From the NCBI GenBank assembly GCA_963702095.1, contig OY969706.1, positions 576,001 through 640,000 of the forward strand: DNA of 64,000 bases, written 5' to 3'. Shown here piece after piece: positions 35,562-60,917 of this stretch. Numbering within the stretch: position 1 is the stretch's first letter; each line of letters starts with the position of its first letter. The notes beneath the pieces are model-generated. The model was given only the letters and a program-made list of their open reading frames with translations. It was not told the origin of the DNA and ran no database searches. The translations under genes were made by a program, and so were the position numbers. The DNA comes from Candidatus Bathyarchaeota archaeon. Its GTDB lineage: Archaea; Thermoproteota; Bathyarchaeia; Bathyarchaeales; Bathycorpusculaceae.

Positions 35562-36620
35562 ATGGGTAGCGTAAAAGACCTGAATGTAATCCAACAACCA
35601 ACCCCGACCGCCATGGGCACTGGACGATTCCTTTTCAGCGACCGTTACAGCGTGTTTGACTGGGGCGAAATGCCTGACCACATCGGAGGCAAAGGCGCAG
35701 CCCTCTGCCTGATGGGAGCATACTGCTTCGAGCAACTCGAGAAGCAAGGCGTGAAAACCCATTACCGCGGCTTAGTAAACAGGGCTGGCAAAGCAGTTAA
35801 GGTTGATGCCCTCAGTGAGCCCTCAGCCACTATGGAAGTGGCATTGGTTAACGTTTACCGCCCCCAAACCAGCGTCGCCGACGGCAAAGTGGTCCATGAC
35901 TACAGCGCCTATACGCCGAGCATCAGAAACTGCCTTATCCCGCTTGAAATCATCTACCGCAATGGTCTCCCCGAAGGCAGCTCCGTCTTTAAGCGGTTGA
36001 CTCAGGGAAAAGTCACCTTAACAGACCTTGGCTTAGACCATCAGCCACAGCCCGGCGAAACCCTCAAAAAACCCATCTTCGACGTCAGCACCAAACTTGA
36101 AGAAACCGACCGCTATGTCACATGGGCTGAGGCGCAGAAAATTGCAGGCTTAACCGACGCCGAACTCTCCGAAGTCAAAGCTGTTCTGCTAAGAGCCGAT
36201 GAAACAATAACCAAAGCAGCCGCCAACGCAAGCCTAAAAAACGAGGACGGCAAAATCGAGTTAGCCTTCGACGAACAGCGCAGACTCATGTTTGTCGACG
36301 TACTGGGCACCCTCGACGAATGCCGCTTCACCTTCGACGGTGTGCACGTCAGCAAAGAAGTTGCTCGGCAATTCTACAAGAAAACCCAGTGGTACAGTGA
36401 TGTGGAACAAGCCAAAAAGGACGCGGAAGCCAAGGGTGTGCAGGATTGGAAGTCACTGTGCAAGTCGCAGCCCCCTCCGCTTGACCCCAAACTTAAAACA
36501 ATAATAAGCCAGATGTACATGGCGGTGGCAAACGAGATGACGGAGAAAACCCTGTTTAACTCGCCTAAACTTGCCGATGTCATAGGCGATTACAAAAGGT
36601 ACATGGAGGAAAAAACATGA
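35562..36620 (+). CDS. purC: SAICAR synthetase
   Basis: GSVKD, FSDRYSVFDWG, STKLE, DGKIE, GTLDECRF. Confidence 0.95.
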   Translation: MGSVKDLNVIQQPTPTAMGTGRFLFSDRYSVFDWGEMPDHIGGKGAALCLMGAYCFEQLEKQGVKTHYRGLVNRAGKAVKVDALSEPSATMEVALVNVYRPQTSVADGKVVHDYSAYTPSIRNCLIPLEIIYRNGLPEGSSVFKRLTQGKVTLTDLGLDHQPQPGETLKKPIFDVSTKLEETDRYVTWAEAQKIAGLTDAELSEVKAVLLRADETITKAAANASLKNEDGKIELAFDEQRRLMFVDVLGTLDECRFTFDGVHVSKEVARQFYKKTQWYSDVEQAKKDAEAKGVQDWKSLCKSQPPPLDPKLKTIISQMYMAVANEMTEKTLFNSPKLADVIGDYKRYMEEKT

Positions 36621-37717
36621 ATATGCAAGACAAAATCAAGCAGGTCCTAATGGACTACAACCCAGATGAAATCCGCATAGGCGTCTTGGGCAGCCACTCC
36701 GCATTGGAAATCGCTTCAGGCGCCAAGCAGGAGGGCTTCGAAACCGTTGTGGTATGCGAAAACGGCCGAGAAAAAACCTACGCCCGATACTACAGCAACA
36801 TTTTTGACAAATTTATTTTCCTCGACAAATTCTCAGACATCACCAACCCCGAAACCGTCAAGGAACTCCAAGACCTAAACACCGTTTTTGTACCCAACCG
36901 ATCTTTCAGCGTCTACGCAGGCTACGACGCGATTGAACAAAAATTCACTGTGCCCTTGATGGGTAACCGTTGGCTACTAAAAACCGAGGAACGCAACGCA
37001 CCCAAAAACCAGTTGTGGCTCCTAAAAGAAGCCGGCATCCAAATTCCCCAAGCTTTCAAGTCACCAAAAGAAATCGACCGCCCAGCCATCGTCAAAGTCC
37101 CCGAAAAAGGCAGAACCATCGAACGCGCCTTCTTCTACGCCTCCAGTCCTGAAGAGTATGAGCGGGAAGCGGAGAAACGCATCAAAGCAGGCATCATCAC
37201 CCGTGAAGCACTCGAAGAATCAGTCATCGAAGAATACGTGTTGGGCGCCAAATTCAACGCCAACTACTTTTACTCCTCCCTAAACGACGACATAGACCTC
37301 CTCGGGTTTGACCGCCGAATCCAAACCGACCTCGATGGCGTCCTCGACCTTCCCGCCCGCGAACAACTCGAACTAAACGTTGCGACGCAAAACATTGAGA
37401 TCGGCCACATGGGCGTTACCATGCGGGAGAGCCAACTTGAAAAAGTCTTTGAAGCTGGCGAACGCTGGGTGCGGGTTTGCAGCAAAGAGTTCCCGCCGGG
37501 CATGATAGGATTATTCGCCCTGCAAGGTGCAGTCACCAAGGACCTACAATTCAAGATCTTCGATGTCAGCCCCCGCGTCCCCGGTTGTCCCTGTGTAGAA
37601 CCCACCTCGCCCTACATGAAGTACAAGTACGGAATAGAAGTCGGCCCTGGCAAAAGGGTCGCCATGGAAATCAAACGTGCCGTGCGCAAACGCAGACTAC
37701 CCGAAGTGGTAACTTAA
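36617..37717 (+). CDS. purP: PurP-family ATP-grasp ligase
   Basis: LGSHSAL, VPNRSF, DRRIQT, RESQL, FALQG. Confidence 0.88.
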   Translation: MNMQDKIKQVLMDYNPDEIRIGVLGSHSALEIASGAKQEGFETVVVCENGREKTYARYYSNIFDKFIFLDKFSDITNPETVKELQDLNTVFVPNRSFSVYAGYDAIEQKFTVPLMGNRWLLKTEERNAPKNQLWLLKEAGIQIPQAFKSPKEIDRPAIVKVPEKGRTIERAFFYASSPEEYEREAEKRIKAGIITREALEESVIEEYVLGAKFNANYFYSSLNDDIDLLGFDRRIQTDLDGVLDLPAREQLELNVATQNIEIGHMGVTMRESQLEKVFEAGERWVRVCSKEFPPGMIGLFALQGAVTKDLQFKIFDVSPRVPGCPCVEPTSPYMKYKYGIEVGPGKRVAMEIKRAVRKRRLPEVVT

Positions 37718-37719
37718 AC

Positions 37720-38805
37720 ATGATTGACGCACAAGCTGTTGGAAAAATAATCGAAAAATACGACCAAAAAAAGCTTGCAATCGGCACCTTAGGCTCCCAC
37801 AGTTCACTTAACATTTTCAAGGGCGCAAAAGAAGAAGGATTCCGAACGGTTTGCATCTGCAAAGAAAAAGACGCCATCATGTACCAAAAGTACCCGTTGG
37901 TCGACGAGTTAATCATAGTTAAAGACTTCACTGAACTCCTCAGCGAGACACTGCAGGAGAGACTGCGGAAACTCAACGTCATTTTGATTCCACATGGCTC
38001 ATTCACAGCGTATCTGAGTACTGAACAGTTGACTGATAATTTAGCTGTGCCCATGATGGGAAACCGCAAGCTGCTCCATTGGGAAGCTAACCGCAAATCT
38101 CAGGAGGAATGGCTCCGCCAAGCTGGACTACGCTTGCCCGCAACATTCAACTCGCCCGAAGACATCGACCGCTTAATCATCGCCAAACTGCAAGGCGCCA
38201 AAGGCGGCAGAGGCTACTTCCTAGCCAACTCACCAGAGAACTTTAACAAACAATTCAATGAAATGGTTAAACGCGGCATGCTAACAAAAGACGACCTGCC
38301 AAGCATCCACCTGCAGGAATACGCATTGGGCGTTAACGTGTACCCCAGTTACTTCAGCAGCATCCTAAACGACGAAGTTGAGCTTTTGGCAATGGATCGC
38401 CGCTATGAATCCGCCGTGGATAGCATAGGCAAAATTCCCGCCAGCCAACAACTTGAAATCGACATCAACCCCACCTACACTGTCATAGGCAACTTCCCCA
38501 TAGTGCTCCGAGAGTCACTGCTGCCCGAAGTCATGCGCATGGGCGACAGCGTCCACAAAAAAGCCGCTGAACTCGCACCGCCAGGAATCATCGGCGCTTT
38601 CTGTCTTGAAACAGTCATTACTGACGAAGCTAAAATCTACACCTTCGAAATCTCTGCGCGTATCGTCGCTGGCACCAATGTGGGTATCGGCACCTCACCC
38701 TACGCTTACCTGCGCTATGGCGAGAACATGTATATGGGCAGACGAATCGCAGTGGAACTCAAAGAAGCAGTAAAACGGAAACGACTAAACGAAGTAGTAG
38801 CCTAA
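37720..38805 (+). CDS. purP: PurP-family FAICAR synthetase, second paralog
   Basis: GSHSSL, IPHGSF, GAKGGRGYF, DRRYES, FEISARIVAGTN. Confidence 0.92.
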   Translation: MIDAQAVGKIIEKYDQKKLAIGTLGSHSSLNIFKGAKEEGFRTVCICKEKDAIMYQKYPLVDELIIVKDFTELLSETLQERLRKLNVILIPHGSFTAYLSTEQLTDNLAVPMMGNRKLLHWEANRKSQEEWLRQAGLRLPATFNSPEDIDRLIIAKLQGAKGGRGYFLANSPENFNKQFNEMVKRGMLTKDDLPSIHLQEYALGVNVYPSYFSSILNDEVELLAMDRRYESAVDSIGKIPASQQLEIDINPTYTVIGNFPIVLRESLLPEVMRMGDSVHKKAAELAPPGIIGAFCLETVITDEAKIYTFEISARIVAGTNVGIGTSPYAYLRYGENMYMGRRIAVELKEAVKRKRLNEVVA

Positions 38806-42676: not shown

Positions 42677-42928
42677 ATGAGTGAAGGCAAAATTACCCAG
42701 TTAATCAAGCAGAAAAGAGATTTTTTGAAGCAAGCAACAAAAGACTATGCAGCGGGCGGACGTGATATGCTTGACGACGTCGAAGCATTAATGGCGGAGG
42801 CTAAGGCGGAGCTCGCACATAACGTGGAGCTTGCCAGCGTTCTGAGGGAAGAGGATGAGGCTGAGTGGCAGAAAGAGTGCCTATCAATGTATCTTGCATG
42901 GTATGAGAAATGGTTCGGTAAAGCCTAA
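42677..42928 (+). CDS. Hypothetical helical protein
   Basis: Clean ORF in operon orientation; no recognised motif. Confidence 0.6.
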   Translation: MSEGKITQLIKQKRDFLKQATKDYAAGGRDMLDDVEALMAEAKAELAHNVELASVLREEDEAEWQKECLSMYLAWYEKWFGKA

Positions 42929-43108
42929 ACTGTGTTTTCTATTGTTTGTTGTTGCTGGGAACCCCTATACACAACAACAACCAGGGGCGTTTGGGGGCAA
43001 CTGTGTTTTTACATCAGGCTGCAGGGATGATTGCGGGCTGGTTGTGGCGGTTTCCGCAAGCAGTGCAGAGGAGTTCTCTGGAGGCATCTGAAAGGCTGCT
43101 TTGCCTGC

Positions 43109-43152
43109 GTTCCACTTTGGAACGGCTATGTTCCGTCAGCAGAGCTAATAGC
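43109..43152 (+). promoter_or_regulatory. Operator GTTC-N7-GAAC-N6-GTTC, then 11 nt, then weak TATA (CTAATAG)
   Basis: GTTC CACTTTG GAAC GGCTAT GTTC (43109-43133); same architecture at 56272 and 60893. Confidence 0.7.
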
Positions 43153-43184
43153 CGCTTCAACCTAATGCTGAATCGGCGAAAAAC

Positions 43185-44372
43185 ATGAAAATCGCACCAA
43201 AACTAATCCTATGCGCAACACTCTCACTGCTAATTGGAATAGCAGTTACAGCACCACTCCTCGCATCCGAACTAAACATCCGCCCGTGGACAACCCATGT
43301 ACAGGGACCAACCGCACCCTTTGACCTCGACCTAGTCTACGCCAACTTCACCATACAAAACCCCGACGCACCCATCACCCAAACCAGTGGACCAACCATC
43401 AACTACTATGCAGTAGTCAACGTAACCAACCCCTCCGACCATCGCGCCCTACTGCTTGGAACAGACTTCTGGGCAGGACAAAAAATCCTAAACGTCACCG
43501 GACAAGCCCCATTTGGCATGGAAGGCAACTGGAGCACCGGTGAAGGCTGGGAAGCCAAAGGCGCCTGGGTCGACGGCGTATGGTACAATGTCACCTACAC
43601 AAACGACCAGTATCCATTCTTCGACGCAGACGGCATAATGACAGAGTCACCTTTCCCCGCACCTTCATCTGAAGGACACTGGATGGAAGGAGTCCAAGTC
43701 TACGAGCGCACGATGCACACTGAAGACGGCACAACTACCACCAGCACCTACCTGAACATGAATGGAACATGGACAGACGTAACCGGCAGAATCACCGTTG
43801 ACAAAGCAGAAAGCGGTCCAGCCTACAGCATGGCTGGTCCAATCGCTGACCAACACATATCCTACCAAAGCGGCTCAACTACTAGCTTCGGAACAAGTGT
43901 CCAGTTTAACGGAACAGACGTTACCAACACTACTGATACGAGAATTAACATAGTGAGCTCTGTAGGCACCGACGGCACCATCGGTTACTCCACAACGAAA
44001 GACATCAACACAGGCGCAGACGCATTCGACAACCACTTTGCACCAGGCGAATCACGACTAATCGTGGTTTACGGCAGTTGGGAAGTCCGATCAGACTGGG
44101 TGACCATGAATGGAAATGGCTTCATAAACCCGGTTTCGGTCATCCAATCTGGCAGTGTACAAACAAAAACCATGGCACACAGCGTAGTTGACATGAACCC
44201 TGTCGCAGGCGACAACACTTTCATCGACCTTTGGTCAGACGCCGTAGAAGTACAGCAGCTCCCACTAACACAGGTAGGCAACAGCTACATCTACAACGCA
44301 GTCCTCAGCAGCAACCAAATGTTTAGGCTTGACCAATCCGGCGCAGAAGCCTTCATCGTAAACCAGAGGTAA
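43185..44372 (+). CDS. Membrane-anchored extracellular protein (KLILC family), putative sensor partner
   Basis: N-terminus KLILCATLSLLIGIAVTAPL and C-terminus LTQVGNSYIYN are homologous to 55499-56215. Confidence 0.8.
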   Translation: MKIAPKLILCATLSLLIGIAVTAPLLASELNIRPWTTHVQGPTAPFDLDLVYANFTIQNPDAPITQTSGPTINYYAVVNVTNPSDHRALLLGTDFWAGQKILNVTGQAPFGMEGNWSTGEGWEAKGAWVDGVWYNVTYTNDQYPFFDADGIMTESPFPAPSSEGHWMEGVQVYERTMHTEDGTTTTSTYLNMNGTWTDVTGRITVDKAESGPAYSMAGPIADQHISYQSGSTTSFGTSVQFNGTDVTNTTDTRINIVSSVGTDGTIGYSTTKDINTGADAFDNHFAPGESRLIVVYGSWEVRSDWVTMNGNGFINPVSVIQSGSVQTKTMAHSVVDMNPVAGDNTFIDLWSDAVEVQQLPLTQVGNSYIYNAVLSSNQMFRLDQSGAEAFIVNQR

Positions 44373-44377
44373 ATGAC

Positions 44378-44860
44378 ATGGCTGACTTGGACTGTGGAGA
44401 ACTCGAAGGAAACACCCTCAACGTGTACGCCTTCGTCGTGAAGGAAGGTAAACCTGTGGGTCCACGCGAAGTTATGCGTGGCGCCAACCTCAGCAGCCCA
44501 AGCACAGCGTATCGGCAACTGCAGAAGCTAGAATCCCTCGGCTTAATCAAGAAAAACGTGTATGGCGCATACGTTGCAAAGGAGAAAGCCAGTGTTAGCG
44601 GGCATGTGTGGGTCGGCAAAAACCTCGTGCCCCGTCTAATCTGTTACTCCCTCTTTTTCTTTGGCATCTTCAGCGTTGAGGTTGCGATTTTGCTGGTTCA
44701 GTTTTTCTTTCAAGGGCAGGCACCTAGTTTAGCTGTCCTTTATCTGGTTCCTATTACGGCTGGTTCAGCAGGGCTCTTTTTGGCAGAGGGTTTGATTCTT
44801 TGGAAACGCAGCAAGCCAGATAACACCCCAAAAAGCGAGGGTAGCACCGTATCAAATTGA
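44378..44860 (+). CDS. Membrane-tethered LexA-like winged-HTH regulator
   Basis: VGPREVMRGANLSSPSTAYRQLQKLE HTH, GHVWVGKNLVPRL linker, two TM helices; paralog of 55013-55480. Confidence 0.85.
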   Translation: MADLDCGELEGNTLNVYAFVVKEGKPVGPREVMRGANLSSPSTAYRQLQKLESLGLIKKNVYGAYVAKEKASVSGHVWVGKNLVPRLICYSLFFFGIFSVEVAILLVQFFFQGQAPSLAVLYLVPITAGSAGLFLAEGLILWKRSKPDNTPKSEGSTVSN

Positions 44861-44929
44861 TTGATAACCAATACAAGTAAACTTCATAAGGCTCGGCAAA
44901 GCTTGAAGTCAGAAAGTAAGGTTGGGCTG

Positions 44930-46337
44930 ATGAGAAGATCACTTGCATATGTCCTATTTGCTATCATTATTACTGCATCCATAGTAGCGGTATCCCTCAC
45001 AGTACTCTCAAAAAAAAGGAATTCTATGTTGGGGTAACTTACTGCGGAGACACCGTTGCTGGGGCAAAACAGTTAATTGACAAAGTACAGAACAACACTA
45101 ACCTCTTTGTGCTCCAATCAGGGTCGCTGCTGCGAAACGTTGACGCCATCAACGAAAAGGGGACTACGCCGTAAACGCTGGGTTGCACTACATTGTCTAT
45201 TTTGGGACAGATAGCGCTTGGGTGATGAATACGTGGCGAGAAAGTTATAACGGAAGCTGGGGAGACAAGTTTTTGGGGATTTATTTCGGGGATGAGCCAG
45301 GCGGAAAAATGTTAGATAGCGATAAATCGTTCTATGATCAGGTGTCTCAGAGTTATATTGGGAAAGACCGCTTTGGCATTCGATGGGAAATCGACAATGA
45401 AACGCTTGCAGCATACTTGCCAGATGGAGTCATCACATTAACTATTACTCCACCCTCTAGCGTGAATGGCGCAGACCGTTATGACGTTAACTTTTATCCG
45501 AATGGAACAGTAACAAATACAACGTACACACCGCAAAAGGACCCAGAGAACCCAAACCAAACAACCTTTATTCCCACTATCGTAACCGTGAAAGACCACT
45601 CAACCTTAAACTACACCTACCAAGAACTCTACAACGCACGCCCATTCCAAACCATTGAAGAAACCGCCCAGAGATTCGTCAACGCAACCAAATCAGCCCT
45701 CAACAATTTCGGCCCTGTCAACGGCACTTTTCTTACCTCGGATTACAGCCTCTACTGGTACGATTATTTAGGGGGCTACGATGCGGTGCTTGCGCAACTC
45801 GGTTGGAACCACACTTCGGTCAAAGATATTGCGCTTGTTAGGGGCGCCGCAGACTTGCAGGATAAAGATTGGGGCACAATTATAACTTGGAAGTATATGC
45901 AGGCGCCGTATTTAGCCAGCGGAGACGAAATCTACGATCAAATGCGGCTTTCGTATGAATGCGGAGCCAAATATGTCGTCGTCTTCAATTATGCGCCAAA
46001 CATGACCGCACCATATGGGACACTGCAAGATGAGCATTTTGAGGCTCTGCAACGCTTCTGGACAGATATAAAAGCCGGCAACATTAAACAGGGAGAAGTT
46101 AAAGCAGACACCGCATTCGTATTGCCCCATAACTATGGTTCAGGCCTAAGAAGCCAAGACGACATCATTTGGGGACTGTGGACGGCAAACGCGACTGACA
46201 GCCAAATTTGGCAACGCATGCAAGATGCATTGTCGGTTCATGGAGAAAAACTTGATGTAGTCTACGAAGACTCAGCGTTTCCGGCGGCGGGCGGCAAATA
46301 TTCGCAGGTTATTTACTGGAACCAAACAGGCAGCTAA
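44930..46337 (+). pseudogene. Secreted protein (possible glycoside-hydrolase-like), two -1 frameshifts near the 5' end
   Basis: ATG 44930 signal peptide; shift at the A8 run (45010-45017) into EFYVGVTYCG...; second shift at AAAAGGGG (45155-45162) into the 45183 ORF (YFGDEPGG). Confidence 0.65.
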
Positions 46338-47762: not shown

Positions 47763-50291
47763 ATGTTAAAATGCACTATACAACAAAAGAAAGCGTTAGC
47801 TATATTGCTAATACTATCTTTCGCAGCTTCAATGATAATGACAATACCCACAACAACCGCACAAGCAGGCACTCAAGCAACTTATCCATTTATCGAAACA
47901 ATCCCTAACGTCGCAGGAGTAGGACAACACGTTATCGTACGTTTCGGTATTCTGCAAGCTTTAGCGAACACTTATCTCGGCTGGAAAAACATAACTGTCA
48001 CAGTCGTTGACCCCGACGGTCAAACATCAACTCTGCACTTCACAACTGACTCAACAGGCGGAACCACAACGATCTACACTCCAACGAAAGTTGGCACATA
48101 CAAATTTACAACGAACTTCCCAGAACAGACAATGCCCGAAGACATCTTCGACATGGAGCGAGGCGCATTCATACCAGCAGGCACAATCATGAAAGCAAGC
48201 ACCAGCGTAACAATCGATCTCGTAGTAAACGAGAACATGCCACCAACATATCCAGAGCAACCACTTCCGACAGACTATTGGACACGACCAATAGACGCCC
48301 AACTCATAAACTGGGCTACAGTTTCGGGAAACTGGGTTGCCAGACCAAATAATGACATCGCACTCTACAACGACTATGCACCTGAAACACCACACGTACT
48401 ATGGTCAACACCATTGACATACGGAGGCTTAGCTGGAGGACTATACGGTGATGATTTAATTGCAGCTGGATCCCCGACAGGAGACGCATACGAAGGCAAA
48501 TTCGTGAATACAGTGGTAATTCACGGAGTAGTCTACTATAACTTAGGGAGTGTAGCGAATCAAAACGGAATCAACGCAGTCGACATACATACAGGCAAAG
48601 AACTTTGGACTAAAAACAATACATACCTATCCTTTGGTCAGACTTTCTTCTTCCACGGCTTCAACTACGACGGCACATTCGACTACCTATGGGATACTTC
48701 AAGCGTACCCGGCACATGGAATGCATATGATCCCTTCTCAGGTGAATGGTCATATTCAATGACAGACGTACCTTCTGGCACACAAACTTATGGACCAAAC
48801 GGTGAAATCCTAATCTACGTCATCGACTATACTCACAATTGGATGGCTCTTTGGAACTCAACCGCTTGCGGACAGCAAGACTCTCAAGGCGGCTACGCTC
48901 TTGGCGCAAACATGGGCAGTTGGGGCGATCAGGTTTACGGCAAAACTTTCAACGCATCGAATCCATTAAGCTACTCATGGAACGTAACAATTCCCGCAGG
49001 ATTAACAGCTGGGTCTTCGTTCTTTGTACCAATTCTGAAAATTTTCCCTGACCGAGTAATGTCTATCGACTTCAACCAAACACGCGTAAGAGTTTGGGGA
49101 GTAAGCACATTACCAGCATCAAGAGGACAATTGCTATTCGATAAAACATGGCAAGCACCATCTGAATGGTTAGACGGCTTCAACACTATACACTATGCAG
49201 GCGCAACCGACCTAGCTCAAAACGGCGTTATTGCAGTATGGGATAAAGAACTACAGAAATTCTATGGCTTTAGCACAGAAGACGGCAGCTATCTATGGAC
49301 AACCGGCGGCGAATATTGGTCAGATGCTTACGGCTGGGGCAACGTTGAACACACATGGTACTTCGCATATGATCACCTCTACTCAGTAGGCGTTGGCGGC
49401 ATCGTATACGCATACAACCTCGGTACAGGACAAACTGACTGGACATACAACATGACTGATCCCTATGGAGAACCCGTATCTGGCAATAACTGGTGGGGAT
49501 GGATACAATTGATCGCTAACGGCATGATCTATGTAGGCACCACAGAGCACTCTGCTAACATGCCTTACCCACGCGGCGGACCATTCATCTGTCTCAACGC
49601 TACAGACGGCACTGAAATCTTTAGAGTAAACGGCATGATGCGCGCGACCCGTTGGGGCGGAAACGCAGTAATGGGCGACAGTACAATCGTAGGCATGGAT
49701 ACATACGACCAACAAGTCTGGGCTATAGGCAAAGGACCCTCTGTAACTACAGTGACGGCAGGACCCAAATCCACTATGATGGGCGGCAGTGTAATCATCG
49801 AAGGCACCGTTATGGACGTATCTCCTGGCACATCAAGTGACAACTTGGCACTCCGCTTCCCAAGTGGTGTTCCAGCAGTCTCTGATGCAAGCCAAGGCGA
49901 TTGGATGCTCTATGTCTACAAGCAGTTCGCTAAGCCATCAAACGCTACAGGCGTCGATGTAACCTTCAGTGTAATCGATGCAAACGGAAACTTCCGCGAC
50001 ATTGGCCACACTACAAGCGACGCAAACGGCTACTACAGCTTCAGCTGGATGCCAGACATATCAGGCAAATACACAGTTTACGCTAACTTCGCAGGCTCTA
50101 ACAGTTACTGGCCATCATATGCAGAAACAAGCTTCGCAATCGACGAATCAGCCTCAACACCTGCACCAACCGATGCACCTTCAAACTATGCGACAACTTC
50201 AGACCTCATGATGTACATAGTCGGCGCAACAATCGCTATAATCATAGCAATCGTAGTTGTTGGCTTACTGCTGCTTAGAAAACGAGCATAA
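47763..50291 (+). CDS. PQQ-like beta-propeller surface protein
   Basis: Signal peptide, PLPTDYWTRPI, propeller repeats, FPSGVPAVSD, TM then LRKRA. Confidence 0.9.
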   Translation: MLKCTIQQKKALAILLILSFAASMIMTIPTTTAQAGTQATYPFIETIPNVAGVGQHVIVRFGILQALANTYLGWKNITVTVVDPDGQTSTLHFTTDSTGGTTTIYTPTKVGTYKFTTNFPEQTMPEDIFDMERGAFIPAGTIMKASTSVTIDLVVNENMPPTYPEQPLPTDYWTRPIDAQLINWATVSGNWVARPNNDIALYNDYAPETPHVLWSTPLTYGGLAGGLYGDDLIAAGSPTGDAYEGKFVNTVVIHGVVYYNLGSVANQNGINAVDIHTGKELWTKNNTYLSFGQTFFFHGFNYDGTFDYLWDTSSVPGTWNAYDPFSGEWSYSMTDVPSGTQTYGPNGEILIYVIDYTHNWMALWNSTACGQQDSQGGYALGANMGSWGDQVYGKTFNASNPLSYSWNVTIPAGLTAGSSFFVPILKIFPDRVMSIDFNQTRVRVWGVSTLPASRGQLLFDKTWQAPSEWLDGFNTIHYAGATDLAQNGVIAVWDKELQKFYGFSTEDGSYLWTTGGEYWSDAYGWGNVEHTWYFAYDHLYSVGVGGIVYAYNLGTGQTDWTYNMTDPYGEPVSGNNWWGWIQLIANGMIYVGTTEHSANMPYPRGGPFICLNATDGTEIFRVNGMMRATRWGGNAVMGDSTIVGMDTYDQQVWAIGKGPSVTTVTAGPKSTMMGGSVIIEGTVMDVSPGTSSDNLALRFPSGVPAVSDASQGDWMLYVYKQFAKPSNATGVDVTFSVIDANGNFRDIGHTTSDANGYYSFSWMPDISGKYTVYANFAGSNSYWPSYAETSFAIDESASTPAPTDAPSNYATTSDLMMYIVGATIAIIIAIVVVGLLLLRKRA

Positions 50292-52147: not shown

Positions 52148-54804
52148 ATGAAAAGAAATGAGAATACGAAAAAATTAGTAGTACTTTCAACACTCTTGAT
52201 GCTTTCTATTGCAGCTTCACTGCTATTGGCTCCAAACGCAGCGCAAGTCTATCCACCAGCAGGCACCGAAATTCCGACTTATGCTTATCTTAACATTGCT
52301 CCTAACCCTGCAGGCGTTGGCCAAACTGTCACTGTCAACTTCTTCTTAGCAACACCTATGGAAACTAGTGAAAGACCGGTCAATATGACGGTTGTTCAGA
52401 CGAATCCTGATGGTACAACCAAGACGTTGGGTCCGTTTACAGGCGATACCACCGGTGGCTCATACACTACATTCGTTCCCGACCATGTGGGTAACTGGAC
52501 GTTCCAGTTCTTCTATGGTGGACAAGTACTCACAGGAACCAGCCGATGGGCAAACTTAACCAATGCACCCAGTCAAAGCGAAAAAGTAACACTCGTTGTC
52601 CAAGAAGAAGCTATCTCTCGAAGTTCATACCCAATCACTCCATTGCCAACAGCTTGGTGGGAAACTCCAGTAAACGCTGAAAACGTACAGGAATGGTACA
52701 AGATATGCGGTCCATGGCTAGGCTTCGGCAGCATAAACTTTGGTCAAACAGGTTCTTATAATTCTACCAGCTTCTGCAATCCCTACACACCATCTGTACT
52801 TTCTGGACACGTTCTCTGGACTAAGGTCTGGGCGAACGGCGGTGTAGTCGGCGGAGATGCGGGAGGAAGTGAAGATACTGGCCACTACTGGTCCACAAGA
52901 CAATACCAGCCACAATACGCTCCAGTCATAATCAACGGCATTCTGTACTCACAGACCTATGACATTGGTACGGGCACAAACATGGGCCATGGTATACAGG
53001 CAGTTAACATCTACACTGGCGAAACCATCTACACTATAAACACAACCAACTCCCTAAGATGCGGCATGACGACAAGATACTACCAAGCTAACCAATATGG
53101 CGCTGTCGGTCCGTTCATCTGGACAACCGGTACGTTGCCCGCAAGTGACACAGGTGGCTCTATACCTAGAAACGTAGGCACACAATGGAACATGTATGAT
53201 GCACTGAACGGCGAGTACGTCCTAAGTATCGTTAACGGCTCAGCTTTGACTCTTAGACCTGACGAGAACGGCAACCTGATCGGCTACTTCCTAAACAGCA
53301 CTAATGGCGCATGGAGTGAAACTGTTTATCCAGCACCGGGCCAAAGCAAAGTTGTCAACGGTACCGGTCCCCACCTAACCTGTGTGAACATGACCATGGC
53401 TATGGGTACAACAGGCGGCTCATTCCAACCAGCACGCAACACAGTCCGAGAGATGAAGACGGGCTACATGTGGACAGTCCCAGTACCAACCGAAATTAAC
53501 GGCGCAGCAATATCCCCTGATCTAGCAGTTAGGGAAGGAATCACTGGCAATGCACTCATTATGACAGGTGGCTTCATTCACGGCCAGGGTGTCGGTGGTG
53601 AATCAGCAGGTTGGCTGCAGTAGCAGCAAGTTTCGATGCAGACTCAGGTACTCAACTTTGGTGTAAGAACTTTACTTACGATGGCGGCTTCAAATCATTC
53701 TTGCCCTACACGAGGACTTCACAGGCTTACGGTGAAGGCGTCATATTCAACATGAACGACGTCAACTATGTTATAGATGCTATCGATGCACGCACAGGCG
53801 ATAAGTTGTGGACGGCAACATTTGCTGGTGATAATGGTGCAGAACCAAACTACTATGACTTGTTCAGTCTCAAACCCTACGTTGCTAACGGCAAACTCGT
53901 CACTGTGGGCCTTGGCGGAGATGTCTGGGCTCATGATGCAAAGACAGGCGCATTGGCATGGTACACAAACACAACAAAGATTCTAGGTGACCCGGGCATT
54001 GAAACTCCGTATGGTATCTGGCCATTCTGGGTCTTCAGTTGCAACGGCTTCTCAAACGACATAGCATACTTAGCAGTCGGACATGAATATAACCCGCCGC
54101 TGTTCCATGGAGCACAAATGATAGCTCTTAACTTGACTGATGGATCAACTGTATGGACTGAACTAGGCACCTACACACGCTCCACATCAATCGCATACGG
54201 CATTCTGTTCTCATTGAACATGTATGACAACCAACTCTATGCTTTCGGTAAAGGTCCAAGCCAAACCACAATATCTGTTCCACAAGTCGGCGTTTCAACA
54301 GACACCGCAATCACCATCACTGGCAGAGTTACCGACATTGCTGAAGGTTCAAAGCAACATGCAGTTGCAGCTAACTTCCCCAACGGCGTACCATGCGTTT
54401 CTGACGAAAGCCAAAGCAAATTCATGGAACATGTCTACCAGCAACAGCCAATCCCAATGGATACCACCGGTGTTTCAGTGACAATCAGCGTAGTCGACTC
54501 TAACGGCAACTACCGCCAGATCGGTTCAACAAAGACTGTTGATGGCACTTACGCATTCGTCTGGACTCCTGACATCTCTGGTACTTTCCAGATGATTGCA
54601 AGCTTTGACGGTTCCAACTCGTACTATCCATCGTCTGCAACATCGTACTTCTATGCGGGCGAAGCAGCAACACCTCAACCGACTACACAGACACAAACTG
54701 GCTTAGCTACAACTGCTGATTTGTTAACCTACATGGCGGCTGGCGTAATAGCTATCATCATCGTGGTAGTCATCGTCGGTTTACTTATCCTTCGGAAGAA
54801 ATAA
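52148..54804 (+). pseudogene. PQQ-like beta-propeller surface protein split by a frameshift at ~53618
   Basis: Removing 2 nt joins GWL and VAASFDADSG, colinear with GWLVVAAQDATTG in the paralog at the window start. Confidence 0.8.
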
Positions 54805-55012: not shown

Positions 55013-55480
55013 TTACCGCACTTCGTCGCCTTTGGGACGAGGAGTGTTTTTTCTGTAAAGCGCAATCCCCTCAACTAGGAACAAGACCATGGCTACGGCA
55101 GTCATGCCTGTCAAGAAGAGGAAACTGCTTTGAATCACTAAATCCTTAATAACCAAACTAAGTAAGAGTATACTTACTTCTGCGGCGAAAGCGCCCATAA
55201 AAAAGAAGGAGTAAAACATCAACCGTGGCACGAGGTTTTTGCCGACCCACACGTGCCCGTTGATGCTTGCTTTTTCCTTTAGGATATAGTCGCCGTAGCT
55301 GTTTTTCTCTATTAATCCCATGTCTTCGAGTTTTTGCAGGTGGCGGTGTGCGACGCTGGTGCTGCTGAGTTGTGCGCCTCTGGTTACGTCTCTGGTTCCC
55401 ACTGGTTTGGCTTCGTGGACGATGTATGCGTAGACGGTTAATGTGTTGCCTTCTAATGTTTCAGTTGATGCGCCAGCCAT
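55013..55480 (-). CDS. Membrane-tethered LexA-like winged-HTH regulator
   Basis: LEGNTL, VGTRDVTRGAQLSSTSVAHRHLQKLE, GHVWVGKNLVPRL, two TMs. Confidence 0.85.
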   Translation of the reverse strand: MAGASTETLEGNTLTVYAYIVHEAKPVGTRDVTRGAQLSSTSVAHRHLQKLEDMGLIEKNSYGDYILKEKASINGHVWVGKNLVPRLMFYSFFFMGAFAAEVSILLLSLVIKDLVIQSSFLFLTGMTAVAMVLFLVEGIALYRKNTPRPKGDEVR

Positions 55481-55498: not shown

Positions 55499-56215
55499 TC
55501 ATAATTTTTCCCTAGCAAACAAGGGGTTAATCTGGTCTAGTTCTTGCTGAGGAATAGCGGTGTTGTATAGGTAGCCGTCGCGGTAACGTGTTAACTCGAT
55601 TTGCATTATTGGCTCCGAATTTTCGTTAGCGTAAATCTGAGTTGATGCAAAATTTACTGAGCGTATTATCGAGTTTTCAAGGTAGATTTTCATTGTAAGT
55701 GTCTCTGGCTGTTCTGTCGTAAGGTTCCAGTTGTCATCATAGCCGTTTTTGAAGTTTTGAGCTGTTCCATTGTACGATCCTGTTCTGCCTACGGGGCCTC
55801 TGTCACTTTCAAGATTAAAAATGTACCAGTTGTCAAGAAAGAACGTGAAATTGGCGGGTGGCTCATTGCCTGTGGTAGCCACGGCGCTTAGTGTTATATT
55901 TCCTATTGATGTTCCATCTGATGATAATTCTGCTCTGTAAGTTTCATAGTAAGCAACTGGGTCATCGGTAAACTCAAAATTCGGTGACGACTCAAAAATA
56001 ATTGAGAATGCCCATCCATATGTATCGTTTGTCAGTGTATTGTTATCCCACACATTACGTATGTAAGCGTATGACATGTCAAACTTTAATGCGGGTCTAT
56101 CAACTGATGGTTGCGCTGCGGCTGGGGTCATCAAATATGTTAAAGGCGCTATTGTTGATATTCCGATTGCGACTGCAAGGATGCTGCATAGGATTAGTTT
56201 CTTTTCAAACTGCAT
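55499..56215 (-). CDS. Membrane-anchored extracellular protein (KLILC family), putative sensor partner
   Basis: KLILCSILAVAIGISTIAPL; C-terminal LTRYRDGYLYN. Confidence 0.8.
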   Translation of the reverse strand: MQFEKKLILCSILAVAIGISTIAPLTYLMTPAAAQPSVDRPALKFDMSYAYIRNVWDNNTLTNDTYGWAFSIIFESSPNFEFTDDPVAYYETYRAELSSDGTSIGNITLSAVATTGNEPPANFTFFLDNWYIFNLESDRGPVGRTGSYNGTAQNFKNGYDDNWNLTTEQPETLTMKIYLENSIIRSVNFASTQIYANENSEPIMQIELTRYRDGYLYNTAIPQQELDQINPLFAREKL

Positions 56216-56252: not shown

Positions 56253-56296
56253 CAATATATTTCTCACTATAGAACGAAACTGTTCTCACAGAGAAC
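56253..56296 (-). promoter_or_regulatory. Operator GTTC-N7-GAAC-N6-GTTC, then 11 nt, then TATA (ATATATTG)
   Basis: Minus strand GTTC TCTGTGA GAAC AGTTTC GTTC (56296-56272). Confidence 0.8.
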
Positions 56297-56364: not shown

Positions 56365-56874
56365 TCAAAGTGTTCTTCGTTTCCTCAGATTAATAATTAA
56401 CAGCAAAACCAATGAAAGAATACCCACACCAACTATCGCTAATGAGAACATCAGCAGGTCTTTTTCAAAGCCAGAAAAACTTAAAACCACCTTAATATTG
56501 GTAGCCTTATCTTCTGGCAAATGAACCAAAACAGCATAACCGCCCCTGCCCTGAGGTTGCTCACTAAAAACGCCCTCGGCGAGATCCTCATACGACCAAA
56601 CTGCATTAACCGACTTGTCAGTGTTCCATTGTTTTATAGCCGCCTCATCCAAAATATATACGCTAACAGTATTATTCGCCCTAATGTTAACGCTGAAATC
56701 TCGATCAAACATCAAAAAATCAGGATACAAAACCCACCCAATAGTAGCCCCCTCCGCTTCATTACCAAAATTCATAATCTTAGGCACCGAATTAACTCTA
56801 ACTGCCGTAACAGCCAAAAGAGCCAGACCAACCAAGAAAACAGCCAAACCCAACCTCAAACTCTTTTTCAACAT
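56365..56874 (-). CDS. Two-TM protein with an extracellular beta domain
   Basis: TMs at both ends; YILD...W and GFEKDLL are shared with the N-terminal part of the upstream gene. Confidence 0.75.
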   Translation of the reverse strand: MLKKSLRLGLAVFLVGLALLAVTAVRVNSVPKIMNFGNEAEGATIGWVLYPDFLMFDRDFSVNIRANNTVSVYILDEAAIKQWNTDKSVNAVWSYEDLAEGVFSEQPQGRGGYAVLVHLPEDKATNIKVVLSFSGFEKDLLMFSLAIVGVGILSLVLLLIINLRKRRTL

Positions 56875-56886
56875 AACATATCCTCC

Positions 56887-58261
56887 CTAGTCAATCTCCA
56901 TTTTACGAGTAAAATAAACAAAAGAAAAAACAAGCAACGAAACCGAAACACCCCCAACAACAAAAACGCTAAACAACCCATCAATCAGCGGTGTAAAAGA
57001 TAAACCGCCATATACATACTGGCGGATAAAAGTGAACCCGTTTGTAAATCGGCCTGTGAAACTAACAAGACTTTCCTGAGCAACGCTTTCAATGCCAAAT
57101 AGCAGGAGTGCAGAGGCTAAAATGGAGAGTACCTCATTTTTAGTAACCACCGACAAAGCAGTCGATATAGTGCAAACTAAGAGAAGTTGAAGAAGCACAA
57201 GCAGTACTGAAGCATAAAACATTGGTTCAAAAGGATTAAGCGCTAAAAGAGGAATCTGTAGCGCAAACACACCAACATAAACAGCAGCGAGCACAGTAAA
57301 GAGGGCTATAAATTTCGCCAAAAACAGTTTACTTCGCTGCACAGGATAGGAAAGAACCATTTTTGTCTCGCCTCTAGAAATGCCGCCTGCATAACTATGA
57401 CAAAACAAAACGCCCGCAATAAATATGAGCAAAAGAAAAATTGACTGGATCCCCACGGTAAGATTATCATAACTGGACGCTGGCGAAAACTCCTTAATAA
57501 CTGGGGTTAAAACCGTGAAAACGGCAATCACCAGTATAACTTCTAACATTGGAAAAGCAAAAGATTCCTCCAACTCCCAAACTAAGAGCCTACGCAGTTG
57601 ACCCCCAACCCTTGATCCACCTGCGCTTTTAGTATGAGCACTCGACACAACTTTTTGAGATAACAGCACGGTAGCACTACTGCTATTGTCATCTTTTTTT
57701 GGTTCTGCACCAGTAGAGGGCTTTTTTGTTTTGCCTTGAAACAATACCTTAGAAACTACAGTAATAAATAGACCTGCAGCAATTGTCGTTGCTGAAATCC
57801 ACAGCAAATCACTCTCATACCCATACAATTTTGGGAACATCTGCCCGTTTAGGCTTTCATTGTCAGGACTAATCACTAGTAAGAAATAGTCCTCTCTATG
57901 GGGGATTTCCATAGTTAAGTTACCTGTAGATGAGACGCCTTTAGCAGACCAAACAGGATCAATAGCTTTTTGTGAGTTCCAAAGCTCGCTGCCTTTAGAG
58001 TCAAGGAGGTAAAAGTCCAAAGATGAAATGGGCTTCAGGTGAAGATATTCATCAAGATAAGTAAAGTTTAATGATATAGCGTAGTTACGTGGTGACAGGG
58101 AATAAGGACCCGAGAAAAAAGTACTCGCAGTCCCTCCGAAGCAACCTGTCTGGCCAGGTAGAAGTCCAGGTGCTTCGGTAAATGGTTCCTGCTAAAAAAG
58201 AGGAGCCAATGACTAGGAGCATTAGGCCAATTGTTGTGAGCAGTTTGGATTTGTTTCTCAA
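56887..58261 (-). CDS. ABC-2 permease fused to an N-terminal extracellular domain; 1-nt frameshift near 58160
   Basis: TTG 58261 gives MRNKSKLLTTIGLMLLVIG; the 58020 frame is open back to ~58190; permease motif GETKMVLSYPVQRSKLFLAK. Confidence 0.7.
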
Positions 58262-58263
58262 TA

Positions 58264-59013
58264 TTAGTCGACCTCCATTTTACGGGTAAAATAGACAAAA
58301 ACGAATAGTAACGCAAGTATTGCAGTTATAAGCGGAAACAATATTGAACCCGTGAACTGCTCAAACGTAGGGGGTATAAGTGAGAGACTATGAGGGCCAG
58401 GGTGGGTTATTTGTTCAAAATACCCAAAAATATTGGTGAACCTTCCAATTGACGAGAAAATGCTGGAATAAAATGAGTTATCAAGTCCAAAAATCAACAG
58501 AAAAGAAACAACAATGGAAACCAATTCACTTTTAGCTATCATAGAAACACCCACTGAAACAGCACTCACAAATAGTAACTGTAGAAAAATCGTAAACAAA
58601 GACACATAAAACATGGGCTCTAGCACACTTATCGCGTTAATGTAAAGATTCATTGCGTATGCAGATGCATATATGCCAAAAATTATTAGATTAAGGGCAA
58701 GCACTTTTGATACGAAAATTTGCCAGCGCTTAACCGGATAAGACAACATTCTCTTTAGGTCGCCTCTTCCGAAGCTACCTGCAAAACTATGCGAAAACAA
58801 AGTACATGTAACAAGAGTTAAAATAAGGAAAATAGTGGTTACACCATTAGATAAATCGCTGTAACTATGGCTGAATCCGTTAATGGTTGTTGATTGAACT
58901 AAAACTGCAAGTATTGCTGAGGCAACAATTAAAGACAGGACAGGCAAGCTTAGGTGGTTTTCAATTTCCCAAATGAATAATCGGGAAAACGTCTTTGGTT
59001 TGGGGTTATTCAT
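58264..59013 (-). CDS. ABC-2 type permease
   Basis: RGDLKRMLSYPVKRWQIFVSK, about 6 TMs, YFTRKMEVD end shared with its neighbour. Confidence 0.88.
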   Translation of the reverse strand: MNNPKPKTFSRLFIWEIENHLSLPVLSLIVASAILAVLVQSTTINGFSHSYSDLSNGVTTIFLILTLVTCTLFSHSFAGSFGRGDLKRMLSYPVKRWQIFVSKVLALNLIIFGIYASAYAMNLYINAISVLEPMFYVSLFTIFLQLLFVSAVSVGVSMIAKSELVSIVVSFLLIFGLDNSFYSSIFSSIGRFTNIFGYFEQITHPGPHSLSLIPPTFEQFTGSILFPLITAILALLFVFVYFTRKMEVD

Positions 59014-59933
59014 CGTTTTTCCCCAACGGTTTGAGTATAAATTTCTTCAAGTGACCCTAAGGTTTTCTGGAAACTTTTCAGTTGCAGTTTTAGTTCTGAA
59101 GCCATTTTGGGGATTTCTGTATAAAACGCGTCTGGATTATTGACCTTACAGAATATTTTGCCGTTTTCAATCCAAACCCTGTCGATTGAGCTTAATTTTT
59201 GGAGCGCTGTCGTGAATTGTTGAGGGTCTGATACTTCAATTTTATAGATGCTGGCCGAATACCTTTCTGTTAGGTTATTTATGTAGCCTTGGTCGACTGT
59301 TTTTCCTTGGTCAATTATGACGAGGTAATTGCAGATCTTTTCTAGGTCACTTAGTATATGGGTAGATATGAGAAAGCTTGTGGCACGTTTTTCATGCATT
59401 TCTTTAATTTTCCCTAAAAGAGTGATTCGCCCCAGAGGATCGATGTTTGCGGTGGGTTCGTCAAGTATTGCTAATTCCGGATTGCCTATTAGTGCCTGAG
59501 CTAAGCCTAGTCGTTTGAACATACCTGCCGAGTAAGTTTTTATGGGTTTATCCTGCGCTTGAGTTAAGTCTACGTCGTTAAGTAGTTCGTCTATAGTTTG
59601 GTCGATTTGTGTTATGCCGTAGAGTTTTGCGACGTGTGTTAGGAAACGTCTTGCGCTAAAGTTGCCAGGGTAGGCGTTGGTTTCATGCATAACGCCCAAT
59701 TTTTGCCGTATTTCAAAAGAGTTTTTCCAACAATCCAAACCAAACACGGAGGCTTGACCTTTGTTAGCCTTAATTAATCCTAAGAGTACACCGATGGTTG
59801 TGGTTTTGCCTGAGCCATTTTTTCCTACAAACCCCGAGATACCCTTCGGAATCTGCATAGTTAAATCATTTAACGCAGGTGCTTTTTTAAAAGTCTTCAC
59901 AAGATTAGACGTTTCTACAACAAATTCTTCCAT
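59010..59933 (-). CDS. ABC transporter ATP-binding protein
   Basis: GKNGSGKTT, YSAGM, ILDEPT, STH. Confidence 0.95.
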   Translation of the reverse strand: MEEFVVETSNLVKTFKKAPALNDLTMQIPKGISGFVGKNGSGKTTTIGVLLGLIKANKGQASVFGLDCWKNSFEIRQKLGVMHETNAYPGNFSARRFLTHVAKLYGITQIDQTIDELLNDVDLTQAQDKPIKTYSAGMFKRLGLAQALIGNPELAILDEPTANIDPLGRITLLGKIKEMHEKRATSFLISTHILSDLEKICNYLVIIDQGKTVDQGYINNLTERYSASIYKIEVSDPQQFTTALQKLSSIDRVWIENGKIFCKVNNPDAFYTEIPKMASELKLQLKSFQKTLGSLEEIYTQTVGEKR

Positions 59934-59943
59934 CAAAACCACC

Positions 59944-60828
59944 TTAGTTTTTCTTTCTCCTACGTTTAATTAATAAAGTCACGACCAGCAAAATGATCGC
60001 TATTGGTATTATGGAGTAGTACAGGATTTGGTTCCAGTTTATTGTTGAACGCTCAGGCACCAGGTTGATGTTTGTCTCAGAAACCGTCCCGGGACCATTG
60101 GCAATGCCGACTACTGCGAAGACGGGATCCCAGAAGATGATGCCTAAACTAAGGCCTGTATCCAAATCACAACCAAAATTTAGCGTCAAATACGGGTTAT
60201 TGTTAATAGTAATGCGTGGACTTGTTACGAATATGTCTTGGTTTCCCTGAACTGTGGTAGTCCACGAATCAGAAGTCGTCGTTACTGGTGATGTGACTGT
60301 TTTTGAATTTTCTTCCCACATAGTTATTTCTTGGCCATTGACTGGGTTTGCAGGCAACCACAAATGCGTAGTACCCAAGAACGTCCCATTAACATTACAC
60401 ACGCTCCTAGTGTAGAGATCGACGTAAACCTCAGCGGTACGTTGTATAGGCACCTTTTCGGAAGAATTATCAACATAATTTACTTTTTCTCCAACGTAGT
60501 CAAGTGTAACCTGCAACTTTGCCATAGTGGCATTAACACTTTCACACCGCCACATTAGACTAGAACTATTAGTTTCAAGAACAGTGTCTAGCTTTTGAGC
60601 TGGTAGCGTGTAATTGGTTCCAGCAAACTTGGGATTAGATAAATTGAAAAAAGCAAAAGAGCATAAATTAGAAGCGCCGGGGATGGAGGGTTCGTATTTT
60701 ACGTATGTGCCTTCTTTTAGCCATGAAGGAGCAAAAGCATCCCTTGCAGTGGCAACTGGAATAAAAGTGCATACACACAAACACAGCATCAACATTGAAA
60801 CTATAAGTTTACGTGAATCTGTCACCAT
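59944..60828 (-). CDS. Surface protein, first gene of the ABC operon
   Basis: Signal peptide, WLKEGTYVKY, C-terminal TM then KRRRKKN. Confidence 0.8.
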   Translation of the reverse strand: MVTDSRKLIVSMLMLCLCVCTFIPVATARDAFAPSWLKEGTYVKYEPSIPGASNLCSFAFFNLSNPKFAGTNYTLPAQKLDTVLETNSSSLMWRCESVNATMAKLQVTLDYVGEKVNYVDNSSEKVPIQRTAEVYVDLYTRSVCNVNGTFLGTTHLWLPANPVNGQEITMWEENSKTVTSPVTTTSDSWTTTVQGNQDIFVTSPRITINNNPYLTLNFGCDLDTGLSLGIIFWDPVFAVVGIANGPGTVSETNINLVPERSTINWNQILYYSIIPIAIILLVVTLLIKRRRKKN

Positions 60829-60873: not shown

Positions 60874-60917
60874 TGATATAACGCTCACTACAGAACAAAA
60901 CTGTTCTCACAGAGAAC
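60874..60917 (-). promoter_or_regulatory. Operator GTTC-N7-GAAC-N6-GTTC, then 11 nt, then TATA (TTATATCA)
   Basis: Minus strand GTTC TCTGTGA GAAC AGTTTT GTTC (60917-60893); 24/25 identical to the 56272 site. Confidence 0.8.

Follow-up and report, generated by a model that had tools for sequence, protein, structure and literature searches.

A putative composite operator at the promoters of a candidate membrane-tethered winged-helix regulator and its predicted exported partner in Bathyarchaeia

Transcription regulators that are held in the membrane are well represented in Archaea, where a census counted 1,384 transmembrane transcription regulators in 367 of 404 species (PMC10269533). For example, ArnR and ArnR1 of Sulfolobus acidocaldarius are described as membrane-bound one-component regulators of archaellum and pilus promoters, with a helix-turn-helix (HTH) at the N-terminus, a HAMP-like domain, a sensor domain and, at the C-terminus, two transmembrane helices (PMC6396743). 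Almost nothing is known of signal transduction in Bathyarchaeia and the uncultured archaea related to them. Here we describe a two-gene cassette of Candidatus Bathyarchaeota archaeon that lies in a stretch of 64,000 nucleotides (nt) of contig OY969706.1 (positions 576,001 to 640,000, hereafter the window), the genome being a single contig of 2.94 Mb. Genes for aEF-2 and PurP in the window agree with its archaeal origin. Gene 1 of the cassette encodes a predicted exported protein, gene 2 a small predicted membrane-tethered winged-helix protein, and the pair is preceded by a composite DNA site that may serve as its operator. A first-pass annotation of the window had proposed the two-gene unit as a signalling module and knew of no such regulators in archaea, a view that does not hold given that ArnR and ArnR1, as outlined in PMC6396743, share the N-terminal HTH and the two C-terminal transmembrane helices, and given the size of the census (PMC10269533). 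Membrane-bound regulators are thus already known in archaea; what is new here is the composite operator.

The closest described systems resemble the cassette in part. Gene 2 has the topology of ArnR, which acts at cell-surface promoters (PMC6396743), as gene 2 is presumed to do. The two differ in what lies between HTH and membrane helices: where ArnR has its HAMP-like and sensor domains, gene 2 has about 20 residues (approximately 68-85) that form a beta-hairpin, and a Pfam search of gene 2 returned no HAMP match. Nor does a co-transcribed exported partner figure in the account of ArnR given in PMC6396743, a comparison made by domain scheme only. With ToxR/ToxS and TcpP/TcpH of Vibrio cholerae, each a transmembrane regulator with a single-pass partner, whose target DNA must come to the membrane (PMC10629549, PMC11323476, as far as these accounts go), the cassette shares the combination of a tethered factor and a co-transcribed partner with a predicted extracytoplasmic domain, gene 1 being perhaps anchored. 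Unlike gene 2, which appears to be a membrane hairpin without an outside domain, ToxR and TcpP are bitopic, with a periplasmic domain of their own and a winged helix of the OmpR type; no Trans_reg_C (OmpR/PhoB-type) match occurs among the Pfam matches of gene 2 up to E=1. The gene order is also the reverse of that in ToxRS, since the partner (gene 1) stands first here. Finally, arCOG00381 of Halobacteria is likewise a predicted membrane-bound regulator linked to genes for proteins with a hydrophobic N-terminus, in its case pilins, but going by its description in PMC4858521 its family is a different one (pfam11748), as is its lineage, and it goes with loci for type IV pili. No description of the gene-2 family, the cassette or the motif was found in the literature on archaeal membrane-associated winged-helix regulators, Bathyarchaeia regulators, archaeal TMEM106B/LEA-2 proteins and ArnR homologues, although members may figure in supplementary tables of PMC10269533 and PMC4858521.

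Position 43109 of the window, at which the first-pass annotation starts its unit, opens a 15-bp inverted repeat, GTTCCACTTTGGAAC, that the annotation left undescribed; with this repeat the operator begins. The layout of the operator recurs from locus to locus: an inverted repeat of the form GTTCY-N5/6-RGAAC is followed after 5-7 nt by a third GTTCY and, about 6 nt further on, by AGAGC or AGAAA abutting a TATA-like box, and the start codon of gene 1 lies approximately 50-65 nt after the composite operator. In the cassette at this position, hereafter cassette A, the ATG of gene 1 stands 34 nt past the sequence TAATAG, a putative TATA box as judged by its position and composition. All 16 loci whose sequence reaches 220 nt or more upstream of gene 1 have the composite operator ahead of it; in another two the promoter is cut by the end of the locus, and these were left out of the count. 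An alignment of 17 promoters shows no variation in the columns GTTC, A, GTTC, G and TA.

Matches to this pattern are rare and are placed in a characteristic way. The strict N5 pattern occurs at only three sites in the 2.94 Mb, all of them in the window, versus none for a reversed control, and the N5/6 pattern gave 11 matches in 10 promoters genome-wide versus three control matches. Each of these 10 promoters is followed by the start of an open reading frame (ORF) 1-66 nt downstream, in nine cases 35-66 nt, and every one of the 10 products has a hydrophobic N-terminus, a feature found in 559 of 2409 background ORFs of at least 150 amino acids (aa) (23%; binomial P 4.5e-7). Six of the promoters lie within 6 kb of a gene of the gene-2 family. 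One of the window sites does not belong to a cassette: it differs by a single base from the operator of the second window cassette, cassette B, and stands 64 nt upstream of the start of a 294-aa ORF that heads an ABC-2 transporter operon, which we tentatively assign to regulator B, the product of gene 2B, because the two operators are near-identical. Five other genomes gave 15, 8, 11, 4 and 8 operator matches versus 2, 0, 2, 2 and 2 control matches, respectively. After deduplication these genomes contributed 30 operator instances, of which 20 have a downstream ORF, and 17 of the 20 products again have a hydrophobic N-terminus; in one of the remaining three, the hydrophobic segment lies just past the 45 residues scored. 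The operator and its regulon, both overlooked in the first-pass annotation, are the strongest evidence for gene 2 as a transcription factor, and we consider it likely that gene 2 binds the composite site.

The form of the operator varies together with the recognition helix of the adjoining gene 2. The subtype GTTCC-N5-GGAAC is paired with the helix SPSTAYRQ at five loci (L001, L009, L010, L011 and L023, the last with a broken gene 2), GTTCT-N6-AGAAC with SPSVA[YH]WH at another five (L012, L017, L002 and two loci of genome G003), and GTTCT-N5-AGAAC with STSVA.R[HQ] at eight. A fresh locus from another genus, L081, fits this rule, and a variant, L083, combines a 228-aa gene-1-like protein and the helix SPSVAYRH with an imperfect distal dyad. 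Both the extra site near cassette B and a site just after the third cassette of the genome are of the subtype of their own cassette. To judge by these pairings, the presence of three insulated subtypes in one genome has the look of paralogous regulator-operator pairs.

Other arrangements were also observed. Double sites, for example at 1370577-1370613 of the genome contig C1 (outside the window) and also in G003, G008, G014 and G040, consist of two full dyads 5 nt apart; they are symmetric, so that the pattern reads on both strands, and have a gene for an exported protein on one side. At L008 and L033, AGAAC-N5-GT(T)CT is found instead about 70 nt upstream of gene 2. In a middle clade of unpaired gene-2 members (L005, L024, L025, L028 and L030) the promoters have a common box, GCAAAGCTAATACG (GCAAAACTAATACG in L024 and L030), without a GTTC/GAAC dyad.

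The two window copies of gene 2 are 54% identical at the protein level (E 2e-60), and neither gene 1 nor gene 2 products reached any Pfam or NCBIfam family threshold. An AlphaFold2 model of gene 2, built on 33 sequences with a mean pLDDT (predicted local distance difference test) of 83.4, consists of a winged HTH (approximately residues 12-67), a beta-hairpin (76-85) that includes the conserved segment GHVWVGK-LVPR, two helices (86-112 and 118-145) and a basic C-terminal tail. Both long hydrophobic helices are kept across the 33 family members, with a loop of about five residues between them, and because of this two-helix hairpin layout the winged helix and the basic tail would be cytoplasmic, with almost nothing outside. 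By this prediction gene 2 counts among the transmembrane transcription regulators, defined as having a DNA-binding domain together with at least one transmembrane region (Demey et al. 2023). In scans with Pfam and NCBIfam we found neither a sensor nor a protease domain in gene 2, as the first-pass annotation had stated. Its claim of an invariant linker needs to be narrowed: GHVWVGKNLVPRL is identical in both window copies but varies across the family (e.g. GHLWIGKTLVPRL).

A resemblance to the DNA-binding domain of LexA had also been proposed. LexA_DNA_bind (PF01726) is indeed the commonest Pfam match in the gene-2 family, with 23 of 33 members at E<=0.01 (best 2.7e-6), and some relatives carry this domain in precomputed annotation; matches in the ESM Atlas were to Bathyarchaeota clusters only, in which 12-29% of members do so. 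The window proteins themselves score 20.1 and 16.8 bits, however, below the gathering threshold of 23.7, and structure comparison does not single out LexA. With Foldseek, the gene 2 model found nothing in the PDB at E<=0.001, and its matches are generic winged-helix regulators (Zur, IclR, MarR-like, HrcA), LexA being at rank 11; a profile search of PDB sequences had MJ223 as its best match (E 0.013) and did not have LexA among its matches. Given these sub-threshold scores and generic fold and PDB matches, the likeness to LexA is a weak sequence affinity and not membership. The two proteins also differ in their C-terminal halves, since gene 2 has its membrane hairpin where LexA has the S24 peptidase, a domain that neither Pfam nor NCBIfam found in gene 2 (TIGR00498 at 16.5 bits versus a cut-off of 110.95). 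GTTC and GAAC are half-sites of the Bacillus LexA box as well, but there in the arrangement opposite to that of the operator described here.

The gene-2 family is widespread. A profile search of 1.84 billion representatives yielded 940 family proteins at E<=0.001, with few exceptions 130-190 aa long. Of 41 genomes (40 relatives and the genome itself), 39 have the family, with 1-11 matches each. Among sampled genomes it is present in 125 of 151 for the class and 113 of 201 for the phylum; most of these have just one copy, with an expansion to 4-10 copies in the family to which the window belongs and in one other. Homologues of both genes bear Bathyarchaeia or Bathyarchaeota labels and are named 'hypothetical protein', and gene-2 homologues in Methanomethylicia are labelled 'ArsR family' or 'winged helix-turn-helix' regulators in their sources. 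Five distant members that we inspected have the same layout of winged HTH and two helices. About a dozen longer relatives of 200-500 aa were among the best 150 profile matches; no added Pfam domain was found in any of the 13 scanned, no search having been aimed at longer forms, and the six inspected are mostly four-helix membrane variants. In five proteins of 280-315 aa (P0276, P0318, P0363, P0366 and P0389) an extra linker, a third membrane helix and a low-complexity stretch of 60-80 residues precede a fourth helix, and variants of this kind would possess their own loop on the outer side. Three distant members of the phylum (L086, L089 and L090, the first two of one genus) have one copy of gene 2 and, next after it on that strand, an ORF of 107-115 aa with an N-terminal hydrophobic helix, possibly a small partner for which the gene order is reversed.

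Both window copies of the two-gene unit are where the first-pass annotation had placed them (Table 1), although 'present twice' understates their number, because the genome has three cassettes, the third at genome positions 976066-977738. A gene-1 profile search of the genome returned exactly these three copies, all of them paired, and one weak match (E 0.003), whereas gene 2 has eight paralogs, three with a gene-1-like ORF directly upstream and five without. The adjacency of the two genes extends beyond this genome: in twelve regions of 15-20 kb from other places and genomes together with 29 kb of the window, 15 of 15 gene-1 homologues lie immediately 5' of gene 2 on the same strand, and further loci agree. 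One gene 2 of this count (in G014) was dropped by the ORF filter, but the family search lists a gene 2 at that position. The gap between the genes ranges from -29 to +138 nt in 16 paired loci, and among the loci returned a gene 1 partner accompanies only the closest clades of gene 2. No third gene is conserved beside 13 cassettes, where families of N-anchored proteins and PQQ-type propellers recur in varying order. At L023 (G017:C101) and L014 (G018:C84) the copy of gene 2 is broken by stop codons beside an intact or partial gene 1, so that some cassettes are decaying.

Gene 1 is conserved at its ends and divergent in between, as the first-pass annotation had noticed. The products of genes 1A and 1B have detectable similarity over their first approximately 54 residues only (37% identity, E 8e-7), and share the C-terminal motif LT-x5-Y-x-YN (LTQVGNSYIYN in 1A, LTRYRDGYLYN in 1B), of which Y370 is nearly invariant in relatives. 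G18 and P24, both in the N-terminal helix, are the only invariant columns across the long and short forms. The notion of gene 1 as a variable module is also borne out by comparison with another genome of the same genus, in which gene 2 has 83-98% DNA identity and the promoter with the 5' end of gene 1 about 74%, while the rest of gene 1 has only 27-55%; the N-terminal half of the next exported-protein gene diverges likewise.

Gene 1A was modelled on 51 sequences (mean pLDDT 84.7); in the model, residues 4-27 form an N-terminal helix, the body is all-beta and a stretch at 232-262 is disordered. The sequence includes eight N-x-S/T sequons. Pfam gave a single row for gene 1A (OB_RRP5, E 0.24), hence nothing at E<=0.1, and none for gene 1B; Foldseek found nothing in the PDB at E<=0.001, with scattered beta proteins at low TM-scores, and the ESM Atlas had no usable match. 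In an all-against-all structural search the luminal domain of TMEM106B (8b7d_A) came first, with 135 residues aligned at a root-mean-square deviation of 3.6 and a Z of 9.2, which is barely above the usual best score for models without a true relative; below it follow ordinary Ig-like sandwiches at Z of about 7 (the next at 7.1). The residues aligned to 8b7d_A span 41-376, and the model suggests that gene 1 may be a membrane-proximal sandwich formed by the conserved N- and C-terminal strands and split by a large variable insert, a structure that would account for conservation at the two ends alone when long and short forms are compared. A pilin-like nature of gene 1 was considered and set aside. 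Class III signal peptides have a small residue ahead of the hydrophobic stretch; the N-termini of gene 1 read M-x-x-x-x-K and then become hydrophobic, with Lys rather than Gly or Ala preceding, and pilin and FlaF structures scored at background (Z 5.6-5.8). As modelled, gene 1 would resemble TMEM106B and LEA-2 proteins in being an N-in single-pass protein with a glycosylatable beta-sandwich just outside the membrane, and the archaeal LEA-2 proteins are presented as type II membrane proteins in bioRxiv 10.1101/2021.03.12.435176; unlike them, gene 1 has no sequence match to the LEA_2 family.

Taken together, we regard it as just probable that gene 2 is a membrane-tethered, autoregulating factor for exported-protein genes, with gene 1 as its input. 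The gene architecture, the conservation of the cassette, the operator and its confinement to promoters of proteins with a hydrophobic N-terminus can be seen in the sequences; binding of the operator by gene 2, the sign of its control and, most of all, a contact with gene 1 are inferred. Gene 2 would be held at the cytoplasmic face of the membrane by its C-terminal hairpin of two transmembrane helices, and its winged helix, as one or two dimers, would bind the composite operator beside or over the region of the B recognition element (BRE) and the TATA box. The operator may be read as a perfect dyad and, 5-7 nt beyond it, another that is degenerate and has its right half adjoining the TATA box. 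In this way gene 2 would control its own two-gene operon and nearby promoters of exported and membrane proteins, with regulator B acting also on the ABC-2 transporter operon of the window. The operator subtype peculiar to each paired paralog (three in this genome) would insulate the regulators from one another. Gene 1 would be co-transcribed and probably translationally coupled with gene 2, and its product, an exported, N-glycosylatable beta-sandwich with a fast-evolving insert, could modulate gene 2 by contact in or at the membrane. That gene 1 is indeed an extracytoplasmic signal input to gene 2 is the more tentative part of this proposal, to which we give somewhat less than an even chance; the confinement of G18 and P24 to the N-terminal helix counts in favour of such a role.

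Several observations weigh against this proposal. Four of the 10 operator promoters are 15-86 kb from any family gene and are of subtypes that match none of the three cassettes, so that another binder is possible. Only the composite site is enriched: single dyads alone gave 4-6 matches in the genome versus 1-11 for control arrangements. The composite site was found at none of the 17 promoters of unpaired or distant gene-2 members, and autoregulation through it is therefore not family-wide. The three clades of paired regulators are related, so that the concordance of helix and operator amounts to approximately two independent changes. Five of the eight paralogs here and most members in the phylum are without a gene-1 partner, and gene 2 can therefore work without gene 1. 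The prediction of a complex of genes 1A and 2A scored 0.01 versus a mark of 0.32 and, made without controls, speaks neither for nor against binding. Signal-peptide cleavage may remove the N-terminus of gene 1 and release the protein, and a helix-helix contact in the membrane would then be impossible. That gene 1 diverges to an extreme degree next to a conserved gene 2 is explained equally well by a variable surface cargo and by a sensor. For window positions 42900-45100 no public sequencing run and no RNA are listed, and expression data were not found.

The alternative that survives best, which we nevertheless hold to be rather unlikely, is that gene 1 is regulated cargo and not a sensor. Gene 2 would still be the tethered factor that binds the operator, but it would read a general state of the membrane or of secretion, or would simply keep the genes of exported proteins at the membrane for coupled transcription, translation and insertion, and gene 1 would be one more variable surface glycoprotein of the regulon that shares the operon by chance. 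Proteins with a hydrophobic N-terminus are what the 10 motif promoters drive throughout, gene 1 included, and a surface protein under diversifying selection would diverge as gene 1 does, together with the N-terminal half of the next exported-protein gene; the many family members without a partner point the same way. The strict order, the tight spacing and the adjacency in every case counted exceed, however, what is expected of an ordinary regulon member, and the hydrophobic N-terminal helix is the best-conserved part of gene 1 across otherwise unalignable forms.

Further down the scale, and improbable in our judgement, is the binding of the operator by another, soluble regulator of exported-protein genes, while the winged helix of gene 2 serves protein contacts or some other role at the membrane. 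Winged helices are not always DNA-binding, the window also encodes regulators of the TrmB and Lrp/AsnC types, and the four distant sites would be accounted for; but the operator subtype tracks the recognition helix of the adjoining gene 2 in all cassettes examined, and a single shared soluble regulator is disfavoured because it leaves the three insulated subtypes of one genome unexplained. Very improbable, finally, is a latent gene 2 whose winged helix is freed from the membrane hairpin by regulated proteolysis to act as a soluble regulator; the cut would fall close to the conserved GHVWVGKNLVPRL hairpin and be under the control of gene 1, on the model of anti-sigma or TcpP/TcpH-type systems: the conserved linker hairpin directly precedes the first transmembrane helix, a conserved Glu (E101, nearly invariant) lies inside that helix, and TcpH is described as shielding TcpP from proteolysis (PMC11323476), but no protease gene is conserved near the cassettes and a cleavage site is unsupported.

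Returning to gene 2 as the tethered regulator of exported-protein genes, the distribution of its family invites a broader, doubtful generalisation. A sensor-less membrane-tethered winged-helix family across much of the phylum could form a dedicated control layer for exported-protein genes in Thermoproteota, which in Bathyarchaeia would have expanded into paralogs, each with an operator code of its own (half-site C/T, spacing N5/N6) and an extracellular co-receptor that evolves fast and serves it alone, as an archaeal counterpart of the logic of multi-paralog RsgI/SigI or of ToxRS. If this is true, the cell would read different cues from outside and, at the membrane itself, turn on those surface proteins and transporters that match them. 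Sequence alone is enough to make out a regulator family with its likely DNA site, a small regulon comprising exported proteins and a transporter, and a candidate outside partner; to test the predictions, short recombinant proteins and oligonucleotides suffice, and the organism need not be grown. Confirmation would provide a first regulator-operator code for these archaea and an example of how a membrane-held factor without a sensor domain of its own is controlled.

Table 1. Positions in the window of the cassettes, their operators and the putative target operon
Feature	Position	Strand	Description	Basis
Operator of cassette A	43109-43134	+	inverted repeat GTTCC-N5-GGAAC (43109-43123), 6-nt spacer, third half-site GTTCC (43130-43134)	
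Promoter-proximal part, cassette A	43135-43151	+	degenerate fourth half-site AGAGC (43141-43145), abutting TATA-like TAATAG (43146-43151)	
Gene 1A	43185-44372	+	395 aa, predicted exported or type-II-anchored; N-terminal helix, sequons, all-beta body	
Gene 2A	44378-44860	+	160 aa; predicted winged helix, beta-hairpin, two transmembrane helices	
Gene 2B	55013-55480	-	155 aa, paralog of gene 2A	
Gene 1B	55499-56215	-	short form of gene 1, 238 aa, 6 sequons	
Operator of cassette B	56271-56296	-	GTTCTCTGTGAGAAC, AGTTTC, GTTCT	
Putative target operon of regulator B	56365-60828	-	ABC-2 type	Pfam matches and ORFs
Membrane protein of target operon	56365-56874	-	169 aa	
ABC-2 permeases of target operon	56887-58020 and 58264-59013	-	two genes	
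ABC ATPase of target operon	59010-59942	-		
First protein of target operon	59944-60828	-	294 aa, signal-like N-terminus	
Third window operator	60892-60917	-	GTTCTCTGTGAGAAC, AGTTTT, GTTCT	

Three other places in the window deserve mention. The gene that follows cassette A (44861-46337, forward strand) is split into a 58-aa ORF with a membrane anchor (44861-45037) and a 384-aa ORF in another frame (45183-46337); in a genome of the same genus the syntenic gene is intact, as a single ORF of 461 aa, relatives have 460-525 aa, and the family is without a Pfam match. The split reflects either a disrupted gene or an assembly error. At 52148-54804 on the forward strand, two ORFs (491 and 397 aa) that overlap by 13 nt fall into one cluster with the PQQ/BamB-like propeller protein of 842 aa encoded at 47763-50291; the pair looks like one gene split by a frameshift. 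Lastly, two tandem PurP-type genes (DUF1246 and DUF1297) lie at 36617-38805 on the forward strand; with the start listed for it the second ORF overlaps the first, and its true start is probably further downstream.

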